The position numbers and the translations under genes are program-made. Below the pieces are notes generated by a model. That model was not told the DNA's origin and did not search any database. It worked only from the letters and a program-made list of their open reading frames with translations. This document shows, one piece after another, positions 5,571 through 33,815 of a stretch of 64,000 bases of DNA. The DNA lies in the sequence record MK327931.1; one strand, written 5' to 3'. The DNA comes from Escherichia phage vB_EcoM_G17. Positions within the stretch are counted from its first letter, which is position 1. Every line of letters starts with the position of its first letter.

Positions 5571-6803
5571 TTACTTATACCATTGCATTTCTCTGATATC
5601 AATGATAATTTTTGATGCTAATTTAATGTTTGGTTTTTTGGGAAGTACTGATTTCTTATATAGAACATCACGAATGTATTGTACTTTATCATCGAAATAT
5701 TCTAATACTTCTTCATACTTCCACTTACCATTACGAATATCCATCAACATTTGTGCATCAGGTCGTTTAACTTGAATAATTCCACTCTGTAAAGCTTCTT
5801 CTGCACTATTCAAAAGTCTAATTGTGTGCATAGCATGTTTACAATCGTATCCGTGTTGTGATTCTAAAACAGCACGTTTGGCATTACGATTTTCTTTCCA
5901 TTTATGATAACTTTTCCTATTCTCACTATTCTCCTGATATTCTTTTTCGTTAAATTTTACAATTAGTTCTGGTTTGGTTTTCAACTCTTCAGTACTACGT
6001 TCTTTTGAAAAATAACGCAATGAACCATCATGGTTAATAGTGCTTTCATTAGGATTCTTAACAATCGCAAAAATGTTTTCTCCGTAATGAATTAGTTCAT
6101 AACCATTATTAAAATTCAATAAATTGAAATCACGATCAAGAATTTTTTCAGTAGTGTAGTTATGCACTAATCTTACGAAATGATATTGCTTTAATGGATT
6201 TTTCGAAACTAACTGCAATGATGTATCACGCATATATTTTTCAAAATCAATCTTTTTAGCATTAAATGGATGTAAGTTGGATGTATCTAAACGTTCAACA
6301 AGATACTGTGGGAATGAATCATACATCCACGCAAGAACCTCATCGACAGGGTGTTCTTCTAAAATCTCATTTAATCGTTTTTCAGCAATACGCTCTTTAT
6401 CCATCCAACCGTGATGATTTGTCATACGCTTAATCTGATTATATGCATATCCAGTGTATGAAAATGCAATCTTGGAACTAAGAAGTTTTTGGTTAAATGA
6501 ACGAAGATAGTCATAAATTTCAGTACTTTCCACAATGTGTTCAGGTTCAACCCAAAGTGATTCAAGAATATTAGGGTTAGCTTCAGTGTATAATTTTAAA
6601 TACTGATTCAACTCATAGAATTTAGTATCTTCTTCGCTTTTGTCAGCTACCTCTTTGACCTTATAGAAGGGTGTAAGAATAAATTCTTTATTAGCAAGAA
6701 AAATACCACGATAATCAGTATCACTTTCCGGTGTACTGGTTCCGTAGGCTTGTGACCCAGCCAAGTGTTTCACTATTGTTTGTTCAATATATTGGTTATT
6801 CAT
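5571..6803 (-). CDS. DNA polymerase beta-superfamily nucleotidyltransferase (predicted)
   Basis: N-terminal GSQAYGTSTPESDTDYRG matches the hG[GS]...DxD nucleotidyltransferase signature. Confidence 0.55.
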   Translation of the reverse strand: MNNQYIEQTIVKHLAGSQAYGTSTPESDTDYRGIFLANKEFILTPFYKVKEVADKSEEDTKFYELNQYLKLYTEANPNILESLWVEPEHIVESTEIYDYLRSFNQKLLSSKIAFSYTGYAYNQIKRMTNHHGWMDKERIAEKRLNEILEEHPVDEVLAWMYDSFPQYLVERLDTSNLHPFNAKKIDFEKYMRDTSLQLVSKNPLKQYHFVRLVHNYTTEKILDRDFNLLNFNNGYELIHYGENIFAIVKNPNESTINHDGSLRYFSKERSTEELKTKPELIVKFNEKEYQENSENRKSYHKWKENRNAKRAVLESQHGYDCKHAMHTIRLLNSAEEALQSGIIQVKRPDAQMLMDIRNGKWKYEEVLEYFDDKVQYIRDVLYKKSVLPKKPNIKLASKIIIDIREMQWYK

Positions 6804-7201
6804 AGATAAATTGTTAACTCCTTTAAGAAACCATTATAATAACGATTAAAGTCATGTTCTAATGTTTTATAATCATCAAAACTAAAACCTAAATTGATAA
6901 TTGTATCTTCTTGAAAGAAAGTTTCTTCATTCATACATTCAATAGGTTCGTAATTAATTCCACCTTTGAAAACTTTTGTAAAAAACATTCCATCATTATT
7001 AATTTCAACATACATAAAATTATTTTCTGGGTCACGAGGACAGACGATATTCAGTGAACTATTTCCACTTGTATTGTACTCATAAGAAATTATATCAAAA
7101 GAATCAATACCATAACACTTAGATTTTTCTTTATCGCCAAATACTTTTCTATCTGTACTCATATTGCGTATAGTGCTATAGATATCATCAACTGTAGTCA
7201 T
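6800..7201 (-). CDS. hypothetical protein
   Basis: ORF co-oriented with and overlapping flanking genes by 4 nt. Confidence 0.5.
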   Translation of the reverse strand: MTTVDDIYSTIRNMSTDRKVFGDKEKSKCYGIDSFDIISYEYNTSGNSSLNIVCPRDPENNFMYVEINNDGMFFTKVFKGGINYEPIECMNEETFFQEDTIINLGFSFDDYKTLEHDFNRYYNGFLKELTIYL

Positions 7202-8871: not shown

Positions 8872-11601
8872 TTATTTCCAACGTGTACCTGGACCTGATG
8901 GTACACCAGTACTGGCAGGTATCGCTGAACCACGTTTCGTTGTACTTGGACGATATGTCAAAAAACGAGTTACTTTTTCTGTATCAATTGAAGTTATTCC
9001 TGAAGTTCCAGTAACTATCTTACCAATGTAAGTGCTAGTTAAAGATTCATCAATTGTTTCAGTACTAATAACATATGACGCTTTCTTAGTATTCCTGTTC
9101 ATTTGTATATACAAATAGAACGTAGTATTAGCTGGGTTACTTTTTACAGTACTTAAATCAACACTTTGTATAGGTAGTCTGTCGAAAATTCCACCTAAAA
9201 ACACCGGAACTTCACGTGTAAAGTACACTGAGAATCCTTGTGCAACGTCTTGTGATACTACCACAATCTTTTCTTTAACGCTACCATTTCCACTAATTAA
9301 ACCATCCATTTCAGCAGATGTTGTACCAAAAACGCTGAATACAGATTTGGTTTGATAGTCAGAATCTTGAAAATTGTAATATCCAAAACCAACACCAGGA
9401 ATAACACCATGTTGATATGCTGCACCAAGTTGGATGTAACTAGATGATAAAAAACGATTTGATGTTATGACACCATCTACTGTTTTAGCTATCATCATCT
9501 TAAATTGTGCATTACCTGGTTGTGAAAATTGATGAACAGCATCAACACCAATGTAACCAAATCCTGAATATTTTGCAACTGTTAGACCAGTACAACGTTT
9601 CATATATGCTTCAGTAATAATTCCTGTAACAGAACTAAGTGTCTCATATCTAGTACTTACCAATGTAGCTGAAGTTATGTTAGATCCAGATAATACAACA
9701 TCAACTTCGGCATAGATTGCATAACCTTGGTTATTGTTAAGATTATATGCTGAAACTACTGCAATGGATTTAGAAAAAGTATTATCAGGTACATAATATA
9801 ATACAATTTGTCCAGATAGTGTACCAACAATGCCAGAGTTTCCTAGATTAGCAAAAATATCTTGTTTTAATGATTCTAATACCGTTGGTTCTATTGTATA
9901 TGTTTCATCAAATTCTAAAGTATCTGGGTTTAATAATCCACCACTTGTTTTATATACACCTTCAATGAATGATGTTCCATAACATCTAACACTACCATCG
10001 GTATCAACAAGAGAAATCATAGCAGTGTATGTAAAATCATCACCTATTTGTTTACGATTAGATTGTGGTGCAAAACCATTTAATGTAGTATTATTTTGAA
10101 CTGAGTTATATTGATATGTTGGTTGTGAGCCTATTTCAGAAAAAACAGTATTATTATAATTATATGTTACATCATCATACGTACCAGAACATGCTAATAA
10201 TATTTTTCTATTATCGATGAAACGTACACCTAATAGGTTTGCACCAACAGCACTACCAAAAACTGGTAAAACGTTTGCATTTATAACGTTACTTGCGGAT
10301 CTAGTACTAGCAACCCATGAATCAAACGGTGTACCACTAACCTTATATCGTTGTAGACCATAAAATTCAGTTGAACTCCATCTAAATTTAGATGCAAATA
10401 CTAAACCATCTTTGGTTTGACATAAACCACCTGCGTTTCCTAATACACCAGCAGCAGTTGTCCCAGTAAAGTTGACCATATTGATTTCAAATGGGTTAGA
10501 AACTTGAAATCCATTATCATATGAAACTGTAGCAGGAGCACGAGCAGAACCATCTAGTGACATAGATTTTGAGTTTATATTATAAACAAAACTGATACCA
10601 GTACCATACACTGTTGAAATATATAAAGGTGTAACCATTCTATGGGTTGGGTATAAAGTTACACGTATTTTGGATAAATCAGTACTAACGTTTGCTTGTA
10701 TATTAAAGTCTGTATAATCCGAAAATTCTACACGTGAGACTGGTGATGTAACTTCGAATAATGAATCCGAGCTAGTACCAACACTATATAATCTATCAAA
10801 CACTCTTATGTTATTAGATGCAGAATAACTTGTATTTCGAACAGTTTGCCCTGATAATCCAGTAACTTTTGTTAATGATGCCATTGAGCTTGCTTTCACA
10901 TCACTTAGCTCTACTGTATAAATTGAAAGTGCTAATCCTAAATTAGAAACACTTTTATCTTTACACCAAATATATACTTTTGTTCCAACAATATGAGTAT
11001 ATATAGGCATATCATTACCAAAAGAAGTACTTGGTACTTTAGCATGAATATGTGATACTTCGTTGAATGTACCATTAGTTATAGTAAAAATATAATTATC
11101 TTCTGTACTTAAACATCCAAGCATTTCATAACCATTAGAGCCAATAAAATACTTAATATTCTCTGTACTACTCATAATTGAAGGTTTATACATTGAATTG
11201 GTTGAAATAACACTTTCTTGTGAAATCATGGTTATATTTCTGATTTCTCGTATAAATGAATAATAAAAACCTTTAGTACTACCATTGGTTCCGCTACGCA
11301 GAACAACGGCGGTTCCATCATCTTCAATAATTGTTGGCTGAACTACTTGGTCACTTGACATAGGTGTAGCACCTTCATACGACCCACTTACGTTTAATGG
11401 CAAGTAATCCATTTCTCCTACACGTGATATAGGCAACATATCTAAAATACTTTGAACTTCTGAACGCTTATATATTGGATATTGAACAATTCCAGTATTG
11501 GCATTCGGTGAGGTTCCATTAAAAGTACGCATAGCGTACCTTTGTCCAATTGCCAAGTTCCCAAGGATCTCGGCACTTCCTATAATTCGTTTTGATGACA
11601 T
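8872..11601 (-). CDS. tail fibre / receptor-binding protein, paralog 1
   Basis: About 910 aa, Ser/Thr/Gly/Asn-rich; N-terminus (PISxxGxxxYLPxxVSG) and C-terminal ~70 aa (VxRFxTYRPSxTxxGSxxPxSTGxPSxxGT) shared with 12217..14913; start set at Met31 of track ORF (AAGGA SD, 16 nt after upstream stop). Confidence 0.7.
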   Translation of the reverse strand: MSSKRIIGSAEILGNLAIGQRYAMRTFNGTSPNANTGIVQYPIYKRSEVQSILDMLPISRVGEMDYLPLNVSGSYEGATPMSSDQVVQPTIIEDDGTAVVLRSGTNGSTKGFYYSFIREIRNITMISQESVISTNSMYKPSIMSSTENIKYFIGSNGYEMLGCLSTEDNYIFTITNGTFNEVSHIHAKVPSTSFGNDMPIYTHIVGTKVYIWCKDKSVSNLGLALSIYTVELSDVKASSMASLTKVTGLSGQTVRNTSYSASNNIRVFDRLYSVGTSSDSLFEVTSPVSRVEFSDYTDFNIQANVSTDLSKIRVTLYPTHRMVTPLYISTVYGTGISFVYNINSKSMSLDGSARAPATVSYDNGFQVSNPFEINMVNFTGTTAAGVLGNAGGLCQTKDGLVFASKFRWSSTEFYGLQRYKVSGTPFDSWVASTRSASNVINANVLPVFGSAVGANLLGVRFIDNRKILLACSGTYDDVTYNYNNTVFSEIGSQPTYQYNSVQNNTTLNGFAPQSNRKQIGDDFTYTAMISLVDTDGSVRCYGTSFIEGVYKTSGGLLNPDTLEFDETYTIEPTVLESLKQDIFANLGNSGIVGTLSGQIVLYYVPDNTFSKSIAVVSAYNLNNNQGYAIYAEVDVVLSGSNITSATLVSTRYETLSSVTGIITEAYMKRCTGLTVAKYSGFGYIGVDAVHQFSQPGNAQFKMMIAKTVDGVITSNRFLSSSYIQLGAAYQHGVIPGVGFGYYNFQDSDYQTKSVFSVFGTTSAEMDGLISGNGSVKEKIVVVSQDVAQGFSVYFTREVPVFLGGIFDRLPIQSVDLSTVKSNPANTTFYLYIQMNRNTKKASYVISTETIDESLTSTYIGKIVTGTSGITSIDTEKVTRFLTYRPSTTKRGSAIPASTGVPSGPGTRWK

Positions 11602-24650: not shown

Positions 24651-26090
24651 TTACATATTTTCTTCAGCAAATTCTGCAAGTGGTGAACGAACAACACCTT
24701 CTAGTTCGATGACACGACAACCTGCCCAATCTTTAAACTTCTCAGTTACATATGTCAAACCACTGTTAACAGGACTAATAAACTTACTGTCAATCTGACT
24801 CAAGTTACCCATAATTACTACTTTACAGTTTAATCCTGCTCGTGTCAAGATTGTTTTGGCTTGTGCAGGTGTAATGTTTTGGAATTCATCAACTACTAGA
24901 ATAGTGTTGGTGAATGAACGTCCACGTACAAAGTTTAGTGCTTTAAATTGAATAACATTACGTTTCATAATCTCTTCAATACTACCTTGAGGGTTAGCAT
25001 CATCTTTATGAAGAAACTCTAACGCGTCAATTGCGGCTCCACAGAATGGAATCACTTTTTCTGCTTCTGAACCTGGCAAGAAACCAATATCTTCAAACTG
25101 TGAGTCTTGAGTTTTAGAGAAGATGATTCGGTCGTATTTACGTTTTTCCAGTACTAATTCTAATGCAGTCGCAATCGTAATTAGTGTTTTACCAGTACCA
25201 GCAGAACCTAGCAGTACTGTTAGATGTACATCAGGATCGAGAATACTGTTGATGGCGAGTGCTTGTTGGATATTCTTTGCTTTAATATCCCATACTTTAG
25301 CACGTAAAGCTACTGATTGTCCAATATCTTGGAATACCAAAATATCTTCTGGTGTTAGTGTTCCATCATCTTCCTCAATTGCTGATTGACCTTCGTACAC
25401 AAATAATACGTCTGCATCATCATATAGATAATCCCCGATGCATAGATTTTGTGGGAGCAAATGCTCAATCAAGCTTTTGGAAATGTAATGATACAAACGA
25501 CGACCAACTTGTTCGGATTGAATATTAGTATTGGTTAAGTTGCTATATACTTCCCAAAAATTGATTTCCAAATGGTGTTGACCAATGTGAATCAAATCAC
25601 TATCACCAATAACAATATCATGGCGATAATCTTGTACCTCGACACCATAACTTAGTGCTTTGATACGCATGTTGATATCACGAGTTACCAGTACTGATTC
25701 TGTTGCTAAAGCTACCAGAATGATTTTATCATCAGGTACTGTGCTTTTGAGAAGGGTTTGAACTTTCTCTTCTGAACCTTTAGTACGAATTAGTGCTTCA
25801 GCTTCTTCGTTTGTAATAACAAACAATTTGCTATCAGGATTCATATTGGTATGAACATCAGCAATATTAACACCAGTACTACTAATCTCATCATGTGATG
25901 CATCTGCAATAATTGCTTCAATGTTACGAATAGCAACACGAGCATCGCGTGAAACATCTACATTACGACTCTTAATTGAATCCAATTCTTCCAGTACTGT
26001 AAATGGTAGAATGATTGCAGCACCATCAAAAGCAATAGATGCATTAGGGTCAGATAGTAGTACGTTTGTGTCAATTGTATATTTTTTCAT
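24651..26090 (-). CDS. phoH: PhoH-like ATPase with N-terminal PIN-like domain
   Basis: Walker A LLGSAGTGKTLITIA; overall PhoH/YlaK-type architecture. Confidence 0.85.
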   Translation of the reverse strand: MKKYTIDTNVLLSDPNASIAFDGAAIILPFTVLEELDSIKSRNVDVSRDARVAIRNIEAIIADASHDEISSTGVNIADVHTNMNPDSKLFVITNEEAEALIRTKGSEEKVQTLLKSTVPDDKIILVALATESVLVTRDINMRIKALSYGVEVQDYRHDIVIGDSDLIHIGQHHLEINFWEVYSNLTNTNIQSEQVGRRLYHYISKSLIEHLLPQNLCIGDYLYDDADVLFVYEGQSAIEEDDGTLTPEDILVFQDIGQSVALRAKVWDIKAKNIQQALAINSILDPDVHLTVLLGSAGTGKTLITIATALELVLEKRKYDRIIFSKTQDSQFEDIGFLPGSEAEKVIPFCGAAIDALEFLHKDDANPQGSIEEIMKRNVIQFKALNFVRGRSFTNTILVVDEFQNITPAQAKTILTRAGLNCKVVIMGNLSQIDSKFISPVNSGLTYVTEKFKDWAGCRVIELEGVVRSPLAEFAEENM

Positions 26091-26779: not shown

Positions 26780-27331
26780 CTATAGATAACTAATTAGTAA
26801 GTTTTCTTTTTGAACCAGATACTCCAATTCTTGTTTTGCTGTACCGATGAAGTTCTGTGTCATAAGATTATTATATCCCGCTTCTCGATTTTGTCCCTTA
26901 GAATAACGAGAAATATGACATAAATTTACACCAGCAACTTCTGCACTTGCATGTTTAGCATTAGTGTATCCATCTCTAATGTGTTTCAACTCGTCATAGG
27001 TTACTTCATAGCTAAAACTGTGACTGTTTGCACCTGGGTAAATTTCAAAAGTTTTGAGTGGTCGAAGATGGGAAACAAAAATATTGTAATCCATTTCTTC
27101 TTGAACTTCACGACGCAACGCATCTTCTAGTGAGATATCAGTACTTTCTACGGTTCCACCACATCCACCAAGAAGACCATCCCATCGTAATTGCAGTAAT
27201 ACTAAATTTACTTCTGGTATATCATTCAACTCATAGTTTTTGTAAGGGTTGCATTTTCTTGCAAAGAAATAACAAAATACAAAATTTGCACGTGTGCCAT
27301 ATTCACCAAAGGGAACTTCTTTAACACTCAT
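26780..27331 (-). CDS. Nudix hydrolase
   Basis: Nudix box GGCGGTVESTDISLEDALRREVQEEMDY (Gx5Ex7REUxEExGU pattern). Confidence 0.75.
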   Translation of the reverse strand: MSVKEVPFGEYGTRANFVFCYFFARKCNPYKNYELNDIPEVNLVLLQLRWDGLLGGCGGTVESTDISLEDALRREVQEEMDYNIFVSHLRPLKTFEIYPGANSHSFSYEVTYDELKHIRDGYTNAKHASAEVAGVNLCHISRYSKGQNREAGYNNLMTQNFIGTAKQELEYLVQKENLLISYL

Positions 27332-28086
27332 TTCATACGTTCCTTAATTATAGTCTCTAGATGCGGTATTGCTTTGGTTGCTGGCTTGATAACTTTTTCA
27401 TTAAACAAAAAATCATTATCATTTTTACGAATGTTAACATTAACACTATAACATGGTAATGCTGCTGCTAATCTCGACCATACCAGTACTGTATCGCTAC
27501 TACCAATTACAATAACTGTATCATTTTCATTAAGAGATTTCAACACATTATTTCGTTCTTCGTAAATTGGTAAGCGAATACCATCAACATAACGATGATA
27601 TTCTCCAATCATTACTACATTTGGTTTAGCAAAAACATCATGTTTTGGTATGTATGGTTCGTATCCGCAGTTAATAACATTATAATCATCGGAATTGATA
27701 CTATAATTTTCAATAACTTCGCACAAGTTTCCATGAAGTTTAAGCTCATGACCACCAATACGAGTATAAAGATCGTCCATGTTAGAAGTCATATGAAGGA
27801 AGCAATCACCATATTGATCTTCTAACGATTTTATAAAATAATGCATTGCATTCGGTTCGCATTGTCCCAATTTTACACGTAATGTATTATAGAAAGAATG
27901 AACAACATGATATTTTGTAGTTAAACTAGCAATGTTACATACATCATTAATTTTAAATGTATCCCACAAACCATCATCAAATCGAAAAGGTTCCATACCA
28001 CTTTCAACAGAAAGTCCTGCACCTGATATAATCAGTAATCGCTTTTTACCTTCATTGCTTATAAATTTTTCTGATATCATATTCAA
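27328..28086 (-). CDS. Sir2-family (sirtuin-like) NAD-dependent enzyme
   Basis: Rossmann motif ISGAGLSVESGMEPFR and TSNMDDLYTRIGGHELKLHG, matching sirtuin GAGIS...GIPxFR and TQNIDxLH...LHG. Confidence 0.75.
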   Translation of the reverse strand: MNMISEKFISNEGKKRLLIISGAGLSVESGMEPFRFDDGLWDTFKINDVCNIASLTTKYHVVHSFYNTLRVKLGQCEPNAMHYFIKSLEDQYGDCFLHMTSNMDDLYTRIGGHELKLHGNLCEVIENYSINSDDYNVINCGYEPYIPKHDVFAKPNVVMIGEYHRYVDGIRLPIYEERNNVLKSLNENDTVIVIGSSDTVLVWSRLAAALPCYSVNVNIRKNDNDFLFNEKVIKPATKAIPHLETIIKERMK

Positions 28087-28283
28087 TCCTTATAAAAAAC
28101 AATTAAATATATTGATAATAACAGAATGATTCCAATATGATAGGCATACATAAAATTATTATCTTTGTGATAACCATTGGATTTCAAGTCCCTATATAAG
28201 CATTTAGCATTGTTATAAATTACAACAATAGAAAAAACTATAAAAAAACTCAAAACCCATTCATAAATTGTGTATGCCATCAT
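28083..28283 (-). CDS. small membrane protein (two TM helices)
   Basis: 66 aa, two hydrophobic segments; ATGA overlap with Sir2 gene. Confidence 0.45.
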   Translation of the reverse strand: MMAYTIYEWVLSFFIVFSIVVIYNNAKCLYRDLKSNGYHKDNNFMYAYHIGIILLLSIYLIVFYKD

Positions 28284-28310
28284 CTATTCTCTCTTATAAT
28301 ATTAGTACTT

Positions 28311-28904
28311 TTAATATTTTAAAACATCAAACTCTTCGCTTACGCTTGTTACATTATCACTAACAATTTTAAAAATTGATTTGATACGTTCGTGTAGTGG
28401 TTTTTTAGATTCGTTCTCAACTTCAATATATGCTTGCATTGCTGCAATTGCATGATATGTCCCACTACCTACTGCGGTAATTCTTGTTTTAGGTTGTAGT
28501 ACTGAAAAGTCTTCTTGAACTTCATAGATTGTATGATTGTGGAGAATGATAAATTGTCCACCTCCTACATCTTGTGATGCATCTCGTGCACCCCATTCTT
28601 CTTTAAACATTTGACGAATAATTGGAATAACTTTAAGAACCAAATATTGTGAAAATGTTTGACTAGCATCTTGTTCAGGTAAATTAAGGTTATAATTTAA
28701 CAACTGACCCATACGAAATGATGTAGTATAACCCAATGCCATTACTTCTTTAGTTCTAGTTAGTCCATCATCATGTAACTTGATAAATTCTTTCTCGAAT
28801 ACCTTTGGCTCAGTTTGAACAGTTTTTGTAAATCCATTGCTTCCTAACTTATCCCCAGCAATAAAAGAACTTACTCCGTCAGTGTGTGCAATAATACAGG
28901 TCAT
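28311..28904 (-). CDS. HslV/proteasome-beta-like Ntn-hydrolase peptidase
   Basis: Start at Met24 of track ORF gives MTCIIAHTDGVSSFIAGDKLGSNG (Thr after Met, as in HslV TTIVSV...IAGDGQ) and ITAVGSGTYHAIAAMQA (HslV AIGSGGxYAxAAA); GGAG SD and ATGA overlap with upstream gene. Confidence 0.65.
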   Translation of the reverse strand: MTCIIAHTDGVSSFIAGDKLGSNGFTKTVQTEPKVFEKEFIKLHDDGLTRTKEVMALGYTTSFRMGQLLNYNLNLPEQDASQTFSQYLVLKVIPIIRQMFKEEWGARDASQDVGGGQFIILHNHTIYEVQEDFSVLQPKTRITAVGSGTYHAIAAMQAYIEVENESKKPLHERIKSIFKIVSDNVTSVSEEFDVLKY

Positions 28905-29161
28905 AAAATAGCTCCAATTGCAAATAATGTTGTGTATAAGATATAAATTAGTGCTCCTAACAACATTAGGCACACCAAGTATGAAGTTGATAGTACATAA
29001 TAAATTATTGCTTCGAATTTTGAATTGAACTTCATTGTAGTTGAATCAATAAAGCCATTACGATAATCTTTGTAAATGAAAACTGTTAGAAAAATAACTG
29101 TAGCATACATTACTACAGTAGCATAAAAAATAATAGATGTCAAGTTTTGGATGTTTGTCAT
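28901..29161 (-). CDS. small membrane protein
   Basis: 86 aa, three hydrophobic segments. Confidence 0.45.
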   Translation of the reverse strand: MTNIQNLTSIIFYATVVMYATVIFLTVFIYKDYRNGFIDSTTMKFNSKFEAIIYYVLSTSYLVCLMLLGALIYILYTTLFAIGAIL

Positions 29162-29231
29162 AGTTATATAATCTCAATATAATTAATAACAAAGGAAGTA
29201 CATCATAATCATCCTGTTATTTTAATTATTT

Positions 29232-29855
29232 TTATTGTTTGACTGAACCGTAAAAAACCAGTTCTGGTTTTGTTAATATTACAACATCTTCACCACGAGA
29301 ACGACTAACTCTAAATAGAACTTCTGGTGGGATTCCATTTGCTGCATATAGTGAAAAAAGGAAACCTACCTTTGTTGCCATTTCTTCGGTAAAAGTTGAT
29401 AACTGTCTTACAGACACAAATGAATTATCACCATCAGTAACATTACTTTTAATCGAAATGTTATGAAGACCCAGTACTGAGCGATTTGTCATATATCGCT
29501 TTTCGGGAGATACACTAAAGAATACCACAGTACATGCTGAATTGCAATACCTAGAAACAATTAAATTTATCCCATTGTCTCTAACAAAGTTTGCCATTCG
29601 AATACCTGCATCAAAATCACCACCAGGAGATGTAATTGTGATGGTATCATAGTGTTCTTTATCATACAACTCTATCATACGCTTGAGTGACCCATCTGTA
29701 ATATCTGATATGAAATATACATTTCGGGTTTCAGGATTATACTTTATCACATTTTTACTTTCAATACCAGCACTGGCTGGAAAATTTATTAACAATAGAA
29801 ACATTGCTGCTTGTATCACTTCAAGCCATAGTCTTTTCATATAACAAGTCCTCAA
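29232..29855 (-). CDS. secreted ClpP/S49-fold serine peptidase-like protein
   Basis: N-terminal signal peptide (LLLINFPASAG); ITSPGGDFDAGIRMANF...NSACTVVF parallels ClpP INSPGGxVxAG...AASMGA. Confidence 0.55.
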   Translation of the reverse strand: MRTCYMKRLWLEVIQAAMFLLLINFPASAGIESKNVIKYNPETRNVYFISDITDGSLKRMIELYDKEHYDTITITSPGGDFDAGIRMANFVRDNGINLIVSRYCNSACTVVFFSVSPEKRYMTNRSVLGLHNISIKSNVTDGDNSFVSVRQLSTFTEEMATKVGFLFSLYAANGIPPEVLFRVSRSRGEDVVILTKPELVFYGSVKQ

Positions 29856-30065
29856 TTTTGTTTAGGAAGATATAAATAATATAGTACTTAAACACTTAAG
29901 TCAAACTTTTTCTGTACTTAACTCAAATTTTTAAAAATAAAACTTAAGGTGTACAGTTTATAACAGATCATATCATACCACTGATGTTTTGTCAACTAGT
30001 TCATGGTGCATCTGATGTAAAAAACAAATATATTTCATACTTATATTTAAAAAAGGAAATAAAAT

Positions 30066-30443
30066 ATGAAAGCTATCGCAGCACAAGGTAAACTACCATT
30101 CAATATCGGCGGGTTTTGTGTAACCGCAGCTAATATAAACGGTGAATTGAAATATAACTTGAACATCTTTAATCAACGTTCTAGTTGTGTTTACGATCTC
30201 ATTGATACTGATTTTAATGTTTATCGTTTTGTAACTATCACTAGTTATGATAAAGATAAAATTAGATTAGATGCATCTAAAACAGCATTGGAAATTGCAC
30301 CAACTCTAGCCAAAAATACTTTTTGTATTAAGATTGACGATAGTGCATTTGCTGAATCATTCCAGTTTCATAAAATTAAATTGAGTACTGGGGCGATGAA
30401 ATATCACCCTTGGGATTTGTATTATTGCAACCTCCCAGGTTAA
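30066..30443 (+). CDS. hypothetical protein (only convincing plus-strand gene)
   Basis: AGGAAA SD 8 nt upstream; 210-bp AT-rich upstream region; strong terminator immediately downstream. Confidence 0.6.
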   Translation: MKAIAAQGKLPFNIGGFCVTAANINGELKYNLNIFNQRSSCVYDLIDTDFNVYRFVTITSYDKDKIRLDASKTALEIAPTLAKNTFCIKIDDSAFAESFQFHKIKLSTGAMKYHPWDLYYCNLPG

Positions 30444-30444
30444 C

Positions 30445-30476
30445 AAAAAAGGAGCCTTGTGGCTCCTTTTTTTATT
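30445..30476. terminator. bidirectional rho-independent terminator
   Basis: Stem AAAAAAGGAGCC/GGCTCCTTTTTT with TTGT loop, A-run and T-run flanks. Confidence 0.75.
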
Positions 30477-30729
30477 CTACAGTATTAAGCTTCTGACAAA
30501 TCATATCAGCTTCTACTCGGTCTTTATAATAAATGGTAAATCCAAATCTACTTGTTACCCTTTTCTCACTACGGTGTATACAGTTTACAATATAGTACTT
30601 ATTATTTTGTGCAGAAAAACGAACTTCATAATTTCGAAAAGAAGTATTAGGTTCATCCATAGCAACTATATATAACATAAAAATAAAAAACACTGTTATT
30701 AGAAAAGCAATAATAATTATTACTGTCAT
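30472..30729 (-). CDS. small membrane protein
   Basis: 85 aa, N-terminal hydrophobic helix. Confidence 0.45.
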   Translation of the reverse strand: MTVIIIIAFLITVFFIFMLYIVAMDEPNTSFRNYEVRFSAQNNKYYIVNCIHRSEKRVTSRFGFTIYYKDRVEADMICQKLNTVE

Positions 30730-31217
30730 TTATCAAGACCCTTATCATAAATGCAATTAACAATAATTCCAGCATCTTCCAGTACTTTAATAGCTTCTGG
30801 TGGTGTACGAGGATAATTTTTGAGATAAATTACACGTGAAATCCCACTACCTGCGATCAACTTAGAACAAGTATAACATGGTTGTAGTGTTGTGTAAAGA
30901 GTAGCACCTTGACGTTCAGTAGGAGAACTATAGAGTAAAGCGTTCATTTCAGCATGGATTTCATGAATATTACTCCACTCATGATGTTCATGCTTTGCTT
31001 CATCACTAACCCAGTCTTGAAAACGTCCATCATTGACTAAGTGTTGATTCACATCACAACAATTTGGTTGTTTTGATGGAGTACCATTGTATCCAGTACT
31101 CAATACTCGGTTATTTTTAACAATAACACAACCAACTTTTTGTGAAATACATTTACTTTCCTCAGCAACTACTTCTGCTATCTTCAACCAAGTCGTATGT
31201 TTCATTATAAGCTCCAA
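30726..31217 (-). CDS. cd: dCMP deaminase
   Basis: Zinc motifs HAEMNAL and PCYTCSKLI; T4 cd-like length. Confidence 0.85.
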   Translation of the reverse strand: MELIMKHTTWLKIAEVVAEESKCISQKVGCVIVKNNRVLSTGYNGTPSKQPNCCDVNQHLVNDGRFQDWVSDEAKHEHHEWSNIHEIHAEMNALLYSSPTERQGATLYTTLQPCYTCSKLIAGSGISRVIYLKNYPRTPPEAIKVLEDAGIIVNCIYDKGLDK

Positions 31218-33119: not shown

Positions 33120-33815
33120 TTACACCCACTCTTCTACACCACCGCGACGCTTAACTAAGTACTTGCCTTCTTCGTTACGTGGACCAAGAATAATACCATC
33201 AATGAAACCATGTTCACCATATTCAAGTGCTTCTTCTGCATTTAACCACAAATCGCGGTCAGCATCTTTTAGTAATTGTTCATGTGATACACCTACAGCT
33301 TCTGCAATTTCTTTGGTCAACAATGTATTCAGTGCATCAGAATGTTGTAGGGAAATCTTCTGGTCTGTAATTAGACCTTGTGTACCAGAACTTACTTGGT
33401 GACACATGAAGTATGAGCGTTTACCACCTAAACGGAAACCTTTAGTCCCAATAACAGATTGTGTATAGCAACCCATTGATGCTGCATAGCCCATTACTAC
33501 AGTGCGAATTGGCGAAATACAAGACTTAGCAACATCTGCAATACCCAAACCTGCGTGTACTGAACCACCCGGTGAACTAATGTAGAATGTAATAGGGGAA
33601 TCACCTTGTGAGTCTAACCATACCAATTGTTGTTTGATGATATGTGCCATTTGATCATTGAAATCAGTATCAAGGAAAATGATACGGTCTTGCATCATAC
33701 GAGATGCTAGATCATATGTACGTTCTGAACCATTAACTTTCTCAACTACGTAAGGAATAGAAATGTTACGTACTTCGCCATTAGCATAACCACCAAACAT
33801 GAATTGTTCAACCAT
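33120..33815 (-). CDS. clpP: ATP-dependent Clp protease proteolytic subunit
   Basis: Collinear with ClpP: ISSPGGSVHAG, catalytic Ser in GYAASMG, His in MCHQ. Confidence 0.85.
   Translation of the reverse strand: MVEQFMFGGYANGEVRNISIPYVVEKVNGSERTYDLASRMMQDRIIFLDTDFNDQMAHIIKQQLVWLDSQGDSPITFYISSPGGSVHAGLGIADVAKSCISPIRTVVMGYAASMGCYTQSVIGTKGFRLGGKRSYFMCHQVSSGTQGLITDQKISLQHSDALNTLLTKEIAEAVGVSHEQLLKDADRDLWLNAEEALEYGEHGFIDGIILGPRNEEGKYLVKRRGGVEEWV

Follow-up and report, generated by a model that had tools for sequence, protein, structure and literature searches.

A putative HslV-like threonine peptidase and a putative exported ClpP-fold hydrolase as probable independent accessory genes of Asteriusvirus jumbo phages

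We analysed a 64,000-nucleotide stretch of DNA from Escherichia phage vB_EcoM_G17 (sequence record MK327931.1; hereafter the window), in which a gene for an HslV-like protein lies close to a gene for a ClpP-like protein with a signal peptide. Our preferred reading, to which we assign a probability of roughly 0.7, is that the two are accessory peptidase genes, independent of each other in evolution and in function, carried in a variable, non-structural slot of Rak2-like jumbo phages. The first product, gp345c, would be a cytoplasmic N-terminal-nucleophile threonine peptidase from a phage-borne family of proteasome homologues, and the second, gp346c, would be exported through the Sec pathway and act in the periplasm as an ATP-independent ClpP-fold hydrolase. 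Over the 4-kb segment from 27000 to 31000 the DNA matches Escherichia phage vB_EcoM_phAPEC6 and phage Sharanji at every position (100% identity), PBECO4 at 99% and 121Q at 91% identity; all four are Asteriusvirus, Rak2-like jumbo myoviruses of about 350 kb, and we use the phAPEC6 protein names throughout. Public annotation (RefSeq, PHROGs) already covers both genes, and phage proteasome homologues have been described as a family before; conservation across many phages indicates that the predicted genes are real.

The HslV-like gene occupies positions 28311–28904 on the minus strand and encodes a protein of 197 amino acids (gp345c; PBECO4 gp096). A mechanical open reading frame call spans 28311–28973 with a GTG start, but the real start is the ATG at 28904, which yields an N-terminus of MTCIIAH, follows a GGAG Shine-Dalgarno sequence 8 nt upstream and is the start annotated in both PBECO4 gp096 ('peptidase HslV family') and phAPEC6 gp345c. 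The protein belongs to phrog_1040 'peptidase HslV family' (E = 4e-24), and a search of 5.8 billion proteins recovered 76 homologues. In a conservation alignment of 40 homologues reaching down to 26% identity, residues M1, T2, C3, D18, K34, G146 and G148 (numbered from the initiator Met) are invariant in all 40, and G58, the equivalent of proteasome Gly47 in the oxyanion hole, is kept in at least 90%. Counted without Met1, the invariant set becomes Thr1, Asp17, Lys33 and the G-S-G motif of proteasome β subunits and HslV, both glycines of the motif being unchanged throughout. Read from the sequence on the minus strand, the codon of Thr1, the predicted nucleophile, is ACC at 28899–28901, directly after the ATG at 28904–28902, with the Asp17 codon at 28851–28853 and the Lys33 codon at 28803–28805. 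The family has no propeptide, and the threonine directly follows Met1.

Profile and structure comparisons place gp345c in the same family. A gp345c family profile searched against the Protein Data Bank (PDB) matched E. coli HslV with E = 5.6e-8 in an alignment that begins at residue 1 and holds Thr1, Asp17 and Lys33 in register, and it also matched proteasome β (about 5e-4) and BPH (2e-3). The AlphaFold2 (AF2) model of gp345c is predicted with a local distance difference test score (pLDDT) of 92.5 and a template-modelling score (pTM) of 0.88 and contains four flanking helices, H1–H4. Foldseek comparison of this model with the PDB ranked HslV first (6.6e-10) and returned a probability of 1.0 to HslV, BPH and proteasome β. 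By predicted fold and catalytic set, gp345c is a member of the proteasome/HslV-like family of Ntn hydrolases (MEROPS T1) and looks catalytically intact. The original prediction, made from the letters of the window, had proposed that an HslV-like product would expose an N-terminal threonine; this is borne out at the sequence level by the invariant Met1-Thr2 and the complete proteasome-type catalytic set, and the opposite case that the prediction had entertained, a non-catalytic structural fold, does not fit a set that is unchanged in 40 homologues. Threonine after methionine is a permissive residue for methionine aminopeptidase, and the host enzyme would remove Met1 and expose Thr1, whose hydroxyl would then attack peptide bonds with the participation of Asp17, Lys33 and a backbone-glycine oxyanion hole. 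Most likely gp345c would do so in a homo-oligomeric ring without a dedicated unfoldase, as has been proposed for BPH.

HslV (ClpQ, MEROPS T1B) shares with gp345c the α-β-β-α N-terminal-nucleophile fold, a Thr1 placed right after Met, the Asp17, Lys33 and G-S-G positions and a size of about 180–200 amino acids. gp345c differs from HslV in its low identity (about 18%), a loop after helix 2 that is at least 6 residues longer, an invariant Cys2 and the lack of an HslU gene in the phage, and members of the Asteriusvirus clade carry an extra 18-residue β-hairpin after Lys33. At about 18% identity, and with scores of 19.9 and 18.9 bits against the NCBIfam HslV equivalogs NF003964/TIGR03692 (cutoffs 137 and 158), gp345c was rejected as an HslV orthologue. 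These same features bear on a different use of the protein, raised in part by the original prediction, in which gp345c docks on host HslU and either forms a hybrid ATP-dependent protease that redirects proteolysis or titrates HslU away from host HslV. HslV proteins are the nearest solved relatives of gp345c by sequence, HslU is present in E. coli, and phages of this kind encode HslV-like genes but no HslU (PMC7823757). We nonetheless judge HslU docking to be rather improbable on weak counter-evidence, namely the distance from HslV in identity and NCBIfam score and the longer loop after helix 2, a long pore loop having been tied by Fuchs et al. to the unfoldase-independent BPH (PMC8665760). The best TM-scores of the gp345c model, up to 0.73 when normalised to the query, are also to BPH, which has no known unfoldase; homologues of gp345c have no conserved AAA+ neighbour; and the family extends to genomes of Patescibacteria, Dehalococcoidia and Myxococcota and to phages of very different hosts.

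For gp345c as an unfoldase-free peptidase, the second point of comparison is the set of phage-borne proteasome homologues PPH, AAH and CPH already described by Fuchs, Alva and Lupas in 2021 (PMC8665760). These group I homologues resemble gp345c in their compact four-helix subunit and in having neither a propeptide nor an associated AAA+ gene, and group I and the gp345c family both occur across Caudovirales, Alphaproteobacteria, Firmicutes and other bacteria. Membership in PPH was excluded on size and helix content, PPH being about 140 amino acids long without helix 2 and gp345c having 197 amino acids and H1–H4, and the gp345c family probably falls into the 'AAH' group, which its taxon spread fits. 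Fuchs et al. found neither a function nor an informative gene context nor an AAA+ partner for the phage homologues (PMC8665760).

The second gene, at 29232–29840 on the minus strand, encodes a predicted exported ClpP-fold serine hydrolase of 202 amino acids (gp346c; PBECO4 gp097 'protease'). Here the mechanical open reading frame extends from 29232 to 29855 with a TTG start, but the real start is the ATG at 29840, which is preceded by GAGGA with an 8-nt spacer. The protein falls into PHROG 26024 'protease' with E = 4e-119. Its N-terminus has the layout of a signal peptide (residues 1–24, from MKR to FPASA; 29769–29840, minus strand), with a basic n-region, a hydrophobic h-region (13-residue Kyte-Doolittle mean 2.28) and an A-S-A cleavage site at residues 22–24 followed by G, and this layout recurs in 19 of 20 family members, the exception being a fragment. 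Close homologues number 13 and come from Rak2-like jumbo phages only, and 49 phage records carry the gp346c type, drawn from Asteriusvirus, RaK2/K64-1, Erwinia phage Hallingskeid and Xanthomonas phage XaC1. A gp346c profile run against 1.84 billion representative proteins reached 1,889 relatives at E ≤ 0.001, of which about 15 are full-length (about 200 amino acids) and the rest mostly about 250 amino acids long and apparently bacterial; the longer relatives share the N-terminal two-thirds of gp346c, and several of them have N-termini resembling those of signal peptides or lipoproteins (7 inspected).

Conservation and modelling suggest that gp346c retains the serine and histidine of a ClpP-type active site. 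Eleven positions are invariant in 20 full-length members (S71, G73, G74, C99, S101, C103, H126, N127, Y165, G169 and P171), and profile-to-PDB and profile-to-sequence alignments both place S101 on the ClpP nucleophile serine and H126 on the ClpP catalytic histidine. The Ser101 codon is TCA at 29538–29540, within C-N-S-A-C, and the His126 codon is CAT at 29463–29465, both on the minus strand; in an hhalign alignment D185 falls within one residue of the ClpP triad aspartate. The AF2 model (pLDDT 91.4) has a ClpP fold with a long handle helix at residues 144–167, preceded at the N-terminus by a helix at residues 2–19 and a disordered linker. Foldseek returned ClpP structures only (E = 2e-8, TM-scores 0.65–0.73), and in a viral structure library the RaK2 orthologue ranked first. 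From sequence and model, gp346c is a predicted exported ClpP-fold Ser/His hydrolase that looks catalytically intact. Its signal peptide would be cut after Ala24, and the mature protein would act in the periplasm through Ser101 and His126, with Asp185 as a possible third member of the triad.

gp346c shares with ClpP (MEROPS S14) the fold with its long handle helix, the S-x-G-G oxyanion motif and the Ser and His positions. It differs from ClpP in having a signal peptide in place of the axial loops that dock ClpX or ClpA, a triad aspartate that is not conserved, an invariant C-x-S-x-C around the nucleophile and a Pfam score below the gathering threshold. Exported in this way, gp346c could not work with a Clp ATPase, and its predicted periplasmic location would leave it free of ATPases, unlike ClpP. 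SppA (S49) and NfeD/1510-N (S49-like) likewise place a ClpP/crotonase fold outside the cytoplasm and work without ATP, but they use a Ser/Lys dyad and are membrane-anchored and multi-domain, whereas gp346c is a single domain of 178 residues with Ser/His. An S49 assignment is not supported, since Pfam Peptidase_S49 gave no match to gp346c at E ≤ 1 and the partner of the serine is a histidine, as in ClpP, and not a lysine; weak matches to NfeD1b_N and to the PH1510 protease were seen. The original prediction had described a signal-peptide-bearing protein of ClpP/S49 fold, and of this description the signal peptide, the ClpP fold and the Ser and His in catalytic positions hold, and the S49 alternative is unsupported. 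Its further concern, that the secreted protein might lack a catalytic triad, is answered for two of the three residues by the invariant Ser101 and His126, the triad aspartate being the variable part. Its suggestion that a periplasmic ClpP-like enzyme could act on envelope proteins is conjecture.

The cysteines that flank the nucleophile form an observation of their own. The C-x-S-x-C motif around the nucleophile serine (residues 99–103; 29526–29540, minus strand) is invariant in 20 of 20 full-length members, and the apparently bacterial relatives of about 250 amino acids carry the same motif as YCxSSCANY. In an exported protein the two cysteines could form a disulfide or control the active site through their redox state.

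The two genes vary independently among relatives, and their adjacency is specific to one clade. In a scan for a conserved pair that covered 80 IMG/VR loci and others, with hidden Markov models for the exported type, canonical ClpP and the cytoplasmic ClpP-like protein, one of the 80 HslV-like viral loci, 121Q (Asteriusvirus), had an exported ClpP-fold gene nearby. Outside the phAPEC6/PBECO4/121Q clade, none of 72 related phage contigs, viral and metagenomic, had the exported type near the HslV-like gene, and a ClpP-fold gene adjoins the HslV-like gene in one lineage among them, where it is of the cytoplasmic type. Each gene also occurs without the other: phage Munch and contigs L007–L009 have an HslV-like protein at 66–67% identity and no exported gene, and RaK2, K64-1 and contigs L086–L088 have the exported gene but, over the roughly 6 kb to either side of it, no HslV-like gene. 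A conserved-pair reading was rejected on these grounds, adjacency being found in Asteriusvirus and, with a cytoplasmic ClpP-like gene, in a single metagenomic lineage. The original prediction had correctly located an HslV-like gene beside a small membrane protein and a ClpP-fold gene, all of which we recovered, but the functional link implied by this juxtaposition is not supported, given the independent presence and absence of the genes in RaK2, Munch and other relatives.

Between the two peptidase genes lies a gene for a membrane protein of 86 amino acids with 2–3 hydrophobic helices (28901–29161, minus strand), which has no Pfam or PHROG match and ends in a TGA that shares bases with the start codon of the HslV-like gene (ATGA). 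The exported, membrane and HslV-like genes might be read as one module, for example a proteolytic relay across the membrane. The three share one strand with tight spacing and a single promoter-like site upstream, the ATGA overlap couples the membrane gene to the HslV-like gene, Asteriusvirus lineages with identities as low as 52% and 81% retain the gene order, and one unrelated metagenomic phage, the sole such case, has a cytoplasmic ClpP-fold gene, a 46-aa gene and an HslV-like gene in succession. We consider a single module very unlikely: in RaK2, K64-1, L086 and L088 no HslV-like gene adjoins the exported gene and Munch and L007–L009 show the reverse, homologues of the 86-aa protein are confined to the PBECO4/121Q clade, an upstream membrane gene is present at 6 of 55 HslV-like loci against a background of 15% and so is not enriched, and gp345c and gp346c would occupy different compartments. 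Small membrane genes do lie directly upstream of the HslV-like gene in Munch (L173, 4752–4991) and EPS7 (L172, 4594–4902), and the upstream membrane proteins of Asteriusvirus, Munch and EPS7, each with 2–3 helices, have no detectable homology to one another.

The promoter-like site is a sigma-70-like element, TTGACA-17 nt-TG-TATGAT with 11 of 12 matches, at 29967–29995 on the minus strand; it lies about 125 nt upstream of the gp346c gene, where the only intergenic gap of any size is found, and gp346c, the membrane protein and gp345c may be transcribed together from it. Such sites are not enriched in the AT-rich DNA here, with 19 found region-wide against 17.7 expected, which is not above chance, and the element is therefore weak evidence.

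Several observations weigh against the reading of two independent, active peptidases. gp345c has no significant match in Pfam, including PF00227 at the gathering threshold, and lies far under the NCBIfam HslV equivalogs. The proteasome homology of gp345c rests on the profile-to-PDB search and the fold; 9 of 40 family members match Pfam Proteasome weakly (best E = 6.5e-4). On gp346c, Pfam CLP_protease (PF00574) scores 17.5 bits (E = 0.004) against a gathering score of 20.2, and the position of the ClpP triad aspartate varies across the exported family among D, N, E, K, S and T, so the chemistry of gp346c may be that of a Ser/His dyad, or may not be proteolysis. Our literature searches returned no functional study of either the HslV-like or the exported ClpP-fold family. 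Within Asteriusvirus, moreover, the order of exported, membrane and HslV-like genes is conserved and the last two are translationally coupled, and there may be a functional link specific to this clade. Finally, a proteasome-fold Thr1 enzyme need not be a protease, connectase being a ligase (PMC8665760). By this precedent gp345c could act as a sequence-specific ligase or transpeptidase in the manner of connectase or as a different amidohydrolase, or could be a scaffold with no enzymatic activity, and the invariant Cys2 of its family, which has no HslV counterpart, along with weak Pfam matches to the connectase N-domain in 5 of 40 members, can be cited in favour. These matches are insignificant (best E = 0.002), the gp345c model has all four flanking helices while connectase lacks them (PMC8665760), and the invariance of the full proteasome catalytic set argues against a scaffold; a non-protease gp345c seems highly improbable to us.

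Comparison of relatives defines the slot in which the two peptidase genes reside. At one border is the gene for the virion protein gp347 (30066–30443, plus strand), which is divergently transcribed, was detected in phAPEC6 virions at 75% coverage and has Ig-like or invasin-like homologues in the corresponding place in RaK2, Munch, L086 and L088; next to this landmark comes the variable slot, bounded on its far side by Sir2, Nudix and PhoH genes. The window has the exported ClpP-fold and HslV-like genes in the slot and neither a pair of Nampt and Nmnat/Nudix genes nor Acb1. RaK2 has the exported gene and the Nampt and Nmnat/Nudix pair and lacks Acb1 and the HslV-like gene; Munch has the pair and the HslV-like gene and lacks the exported gene and Acb1; and L086 has the exported gene, the pair and Acb1 and lacks the HslV-like gene. 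The NARP2-like pair is found at 6697–10697 in L086 and L087, at 7571–11229 in L174 (RaK2) and at 1081–4263 in L173 (Munch), and the window keeps only Sir2 (27328–28086) and Nudix (26780–27331).

This company raises the question of whether either peptidase, or each of them, serves as an effector in counter-defence or host takeover by degrading, for example, a host immune protein or an envelope receptor. The same slot in relatives holds the NARP2-like pair and Acb1, and NARP2 is an established counter-defence pathway that counters NAD-depleting defence; the patchy presence of the peptidase genes is typical of accessory genes, and the host-type promoter suggests early expression. Such reasoning is guilt by association, and in T5-like phages the HslV-like gene lies among nucleotide-metabolism genes; we hold a role as effectors to be unlikely. 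A bolder proposal makes the whole slot, from the Ig-like virion gene to Sir2/Nudix, an anti-defence island of Rak2-like jumbo phages and the two peptidases new kinds of counter-defence or superinfection effectors: gp345c would be a mini-proteasome able to break down some host protein of immunity or stress with no unfoldase, and gp346c a periplasmic ClpP-fold hydrolase that trims envelope proteins or receptors and is possibly gated by an export-dependent C-x-S-x-C disulfide. This strikes us as a rather long shot.

Virion and genome-position data separate both peptidases from head assembly. Mass spectrometry of phAPEC6 virions detected 62 proteins, including gp341c (PhoH-like), gp347 and gp227c, and neither gp345c nor gp346c nor gp353c, the canonical ClpP of the phage, is among them. 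gp227c is a 'prohead core scaffold and protease' of T4 gp21 type whose gene adjoins the scaffold and major head genes. The phAPEC6 head module of major head protein, scaffold, prohead protease and portal spans gp225c–gp230c, which puts the prohead protease over 100 genes away from those of the peptidases. The absence of the peptidases from virions, together with the position of gp227c beside the capsid genes, makes a morphogenetic role very unlikely, in agreement with the original prediction, which had noted that neither gene is near head genes and had doubted a prohead-protease function for that reason.

The notion that one of the peptidases matures the capsid nonetheless has some grounds: ClpP-fold prohead proteases are common in phages, NCBIfam gives weak matches to Clp_rel_HeadMat, and 'head maturation protease' is the label of ClpP-fold genes in some RefSeq and PHROG records. 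We find it barely credible here, with gp227c both encoded in the head module and present in virions from which gp345c, gp346c and gp353c are missing, with NCBIfam head-maturation scores of 20–28 bits against a cutoff of 120, and with an exported protein unable to reach proheads. RefSeq applies the label to canonical ClpP in PBECO4 (gp105) and RaK2 (F403_gp046), where it is probably wrong, given the place of gp227c in the head module and the absence of ClpP from virions; on ClpP-fold genes such labels are probably transfers from PHROG categories.

The HslV-like family extends well beyond jumbo phages. It is present in 197 GenBank phage records, which include T5-like Epseptimavirus, with genes labelled 'proteasome subunit', 'threonine-type endopeptidase' or 'peptidase HslV family', as well as Aeromonas and Vibrio phages, XacN1, SCTP-2 and Geobacillus E3, and a further 374 IMG/VR contigs carry it. 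In bacterial genomes we counted 390 loci, with carriers that include many Azospirillum species, Polyangiaceae, Paenibacillus, Patescibacteria, Dehalococcoidia and Myxococcota; naive open reading frame calls are unreliable in high-GC bacterial loci, and bacterial contexts were used for the taxon list only. The HslV-like gene had no match in complete E. coli genomes and is thus not prophage-borne there. All-against-all clustering of gene neighbours gave no universal partner and no conserved AAA+ gene. Neighbours are lineage-specific instead, among them an HD-domain-like protein, an NAD-dependent ligase, Thg1-like and aminoacyl-tRNA synthetase-like proteins and a portal protein, and in T5-like phages the surroundings are genes of nucleotide metabolism.

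Some local patterns within the family deserve mention. About 30 Azospirillum species have a chromosomal homologue at 28–30% identity (L104–L167), which on crude open reading frame calls lies in an apparently conserved, non-prophage context near a glutamyl-tRNA synthetase gene. At 11 viral loci, including L023, L025, L026, L030, L031, L032, L039 and L041, a gene for an HD-domain-like protein of about 210 amino acids lies directly upstream of the HslV-like gene, mostly with an overlap of 4 nt (or 1 nt), and by eye this protein was assigned as RelA/SpoT-hydrolase-like. A 324-kb jumbo-phage IMG/VR contig (L053) has three HslV-like paralogues within 4 kb, at 6001–6549, 6578–7123 and 9097–9765, and two HslV-like copies are reported in Salmonella phage pSal-SNUABM-04. 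Multiple paralogues in one phage hint at hetero-oligomeric phage 'mini-proteasomes'.

Further features of the window complete the context. The canonical cytoplasmic ClpP homologue, 231 amino acids long (gp353c, named ClpP in the phAPEC6 annotation), is encoded at 33120–33815 and matches Pfam CLP_protease with E = 4.2e-41 over profile positions 2–179 of 182, which confirms the expectation of a canonical ClpP 4 kb away; its gene is on the minus strand, like the HslV-like, 86-aa membrane and ClpP-fold genes. Directly downstream of the HslV-like gene is an open reading frame for a second small membrane protein, of 66 amino acids with 2 hydrophobic helices (28083–28283, minus strand), and its homologues, like those of the 86-aa protein, are restricted to the PBECO4/121Q clade. 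A PhoH-like ATPase of 479 amino acids with an N-terminal PIN-like region (24651–26090, minus strand) corresponds to gp341c, which was found in phAPEC6 virions at 31% coverage, an unusual location for a PhoH homologue.

Together, these results spare effort on several fronts, as the genes do not form a conserved pair, head maturation fits neither product, and the 'head maturation protease' labels on ClpP-fold genes are probably wrong. The same phage combines an HslV-like protein with a canonical ClpP and with gp346c, whose large, apparently bacterial family counts about 1,900 relatives at E ≤ 0.001. Phage-borne proteasome homologues are widespread, in 197 sequenced phages that include T5-like coliphages and in hundreds of metagenomic contigs, and a tractable E. 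coli phage with an HslV-like gene is a reasonable place to learn what role a proteasome relative without an unfoldase may play in infection.

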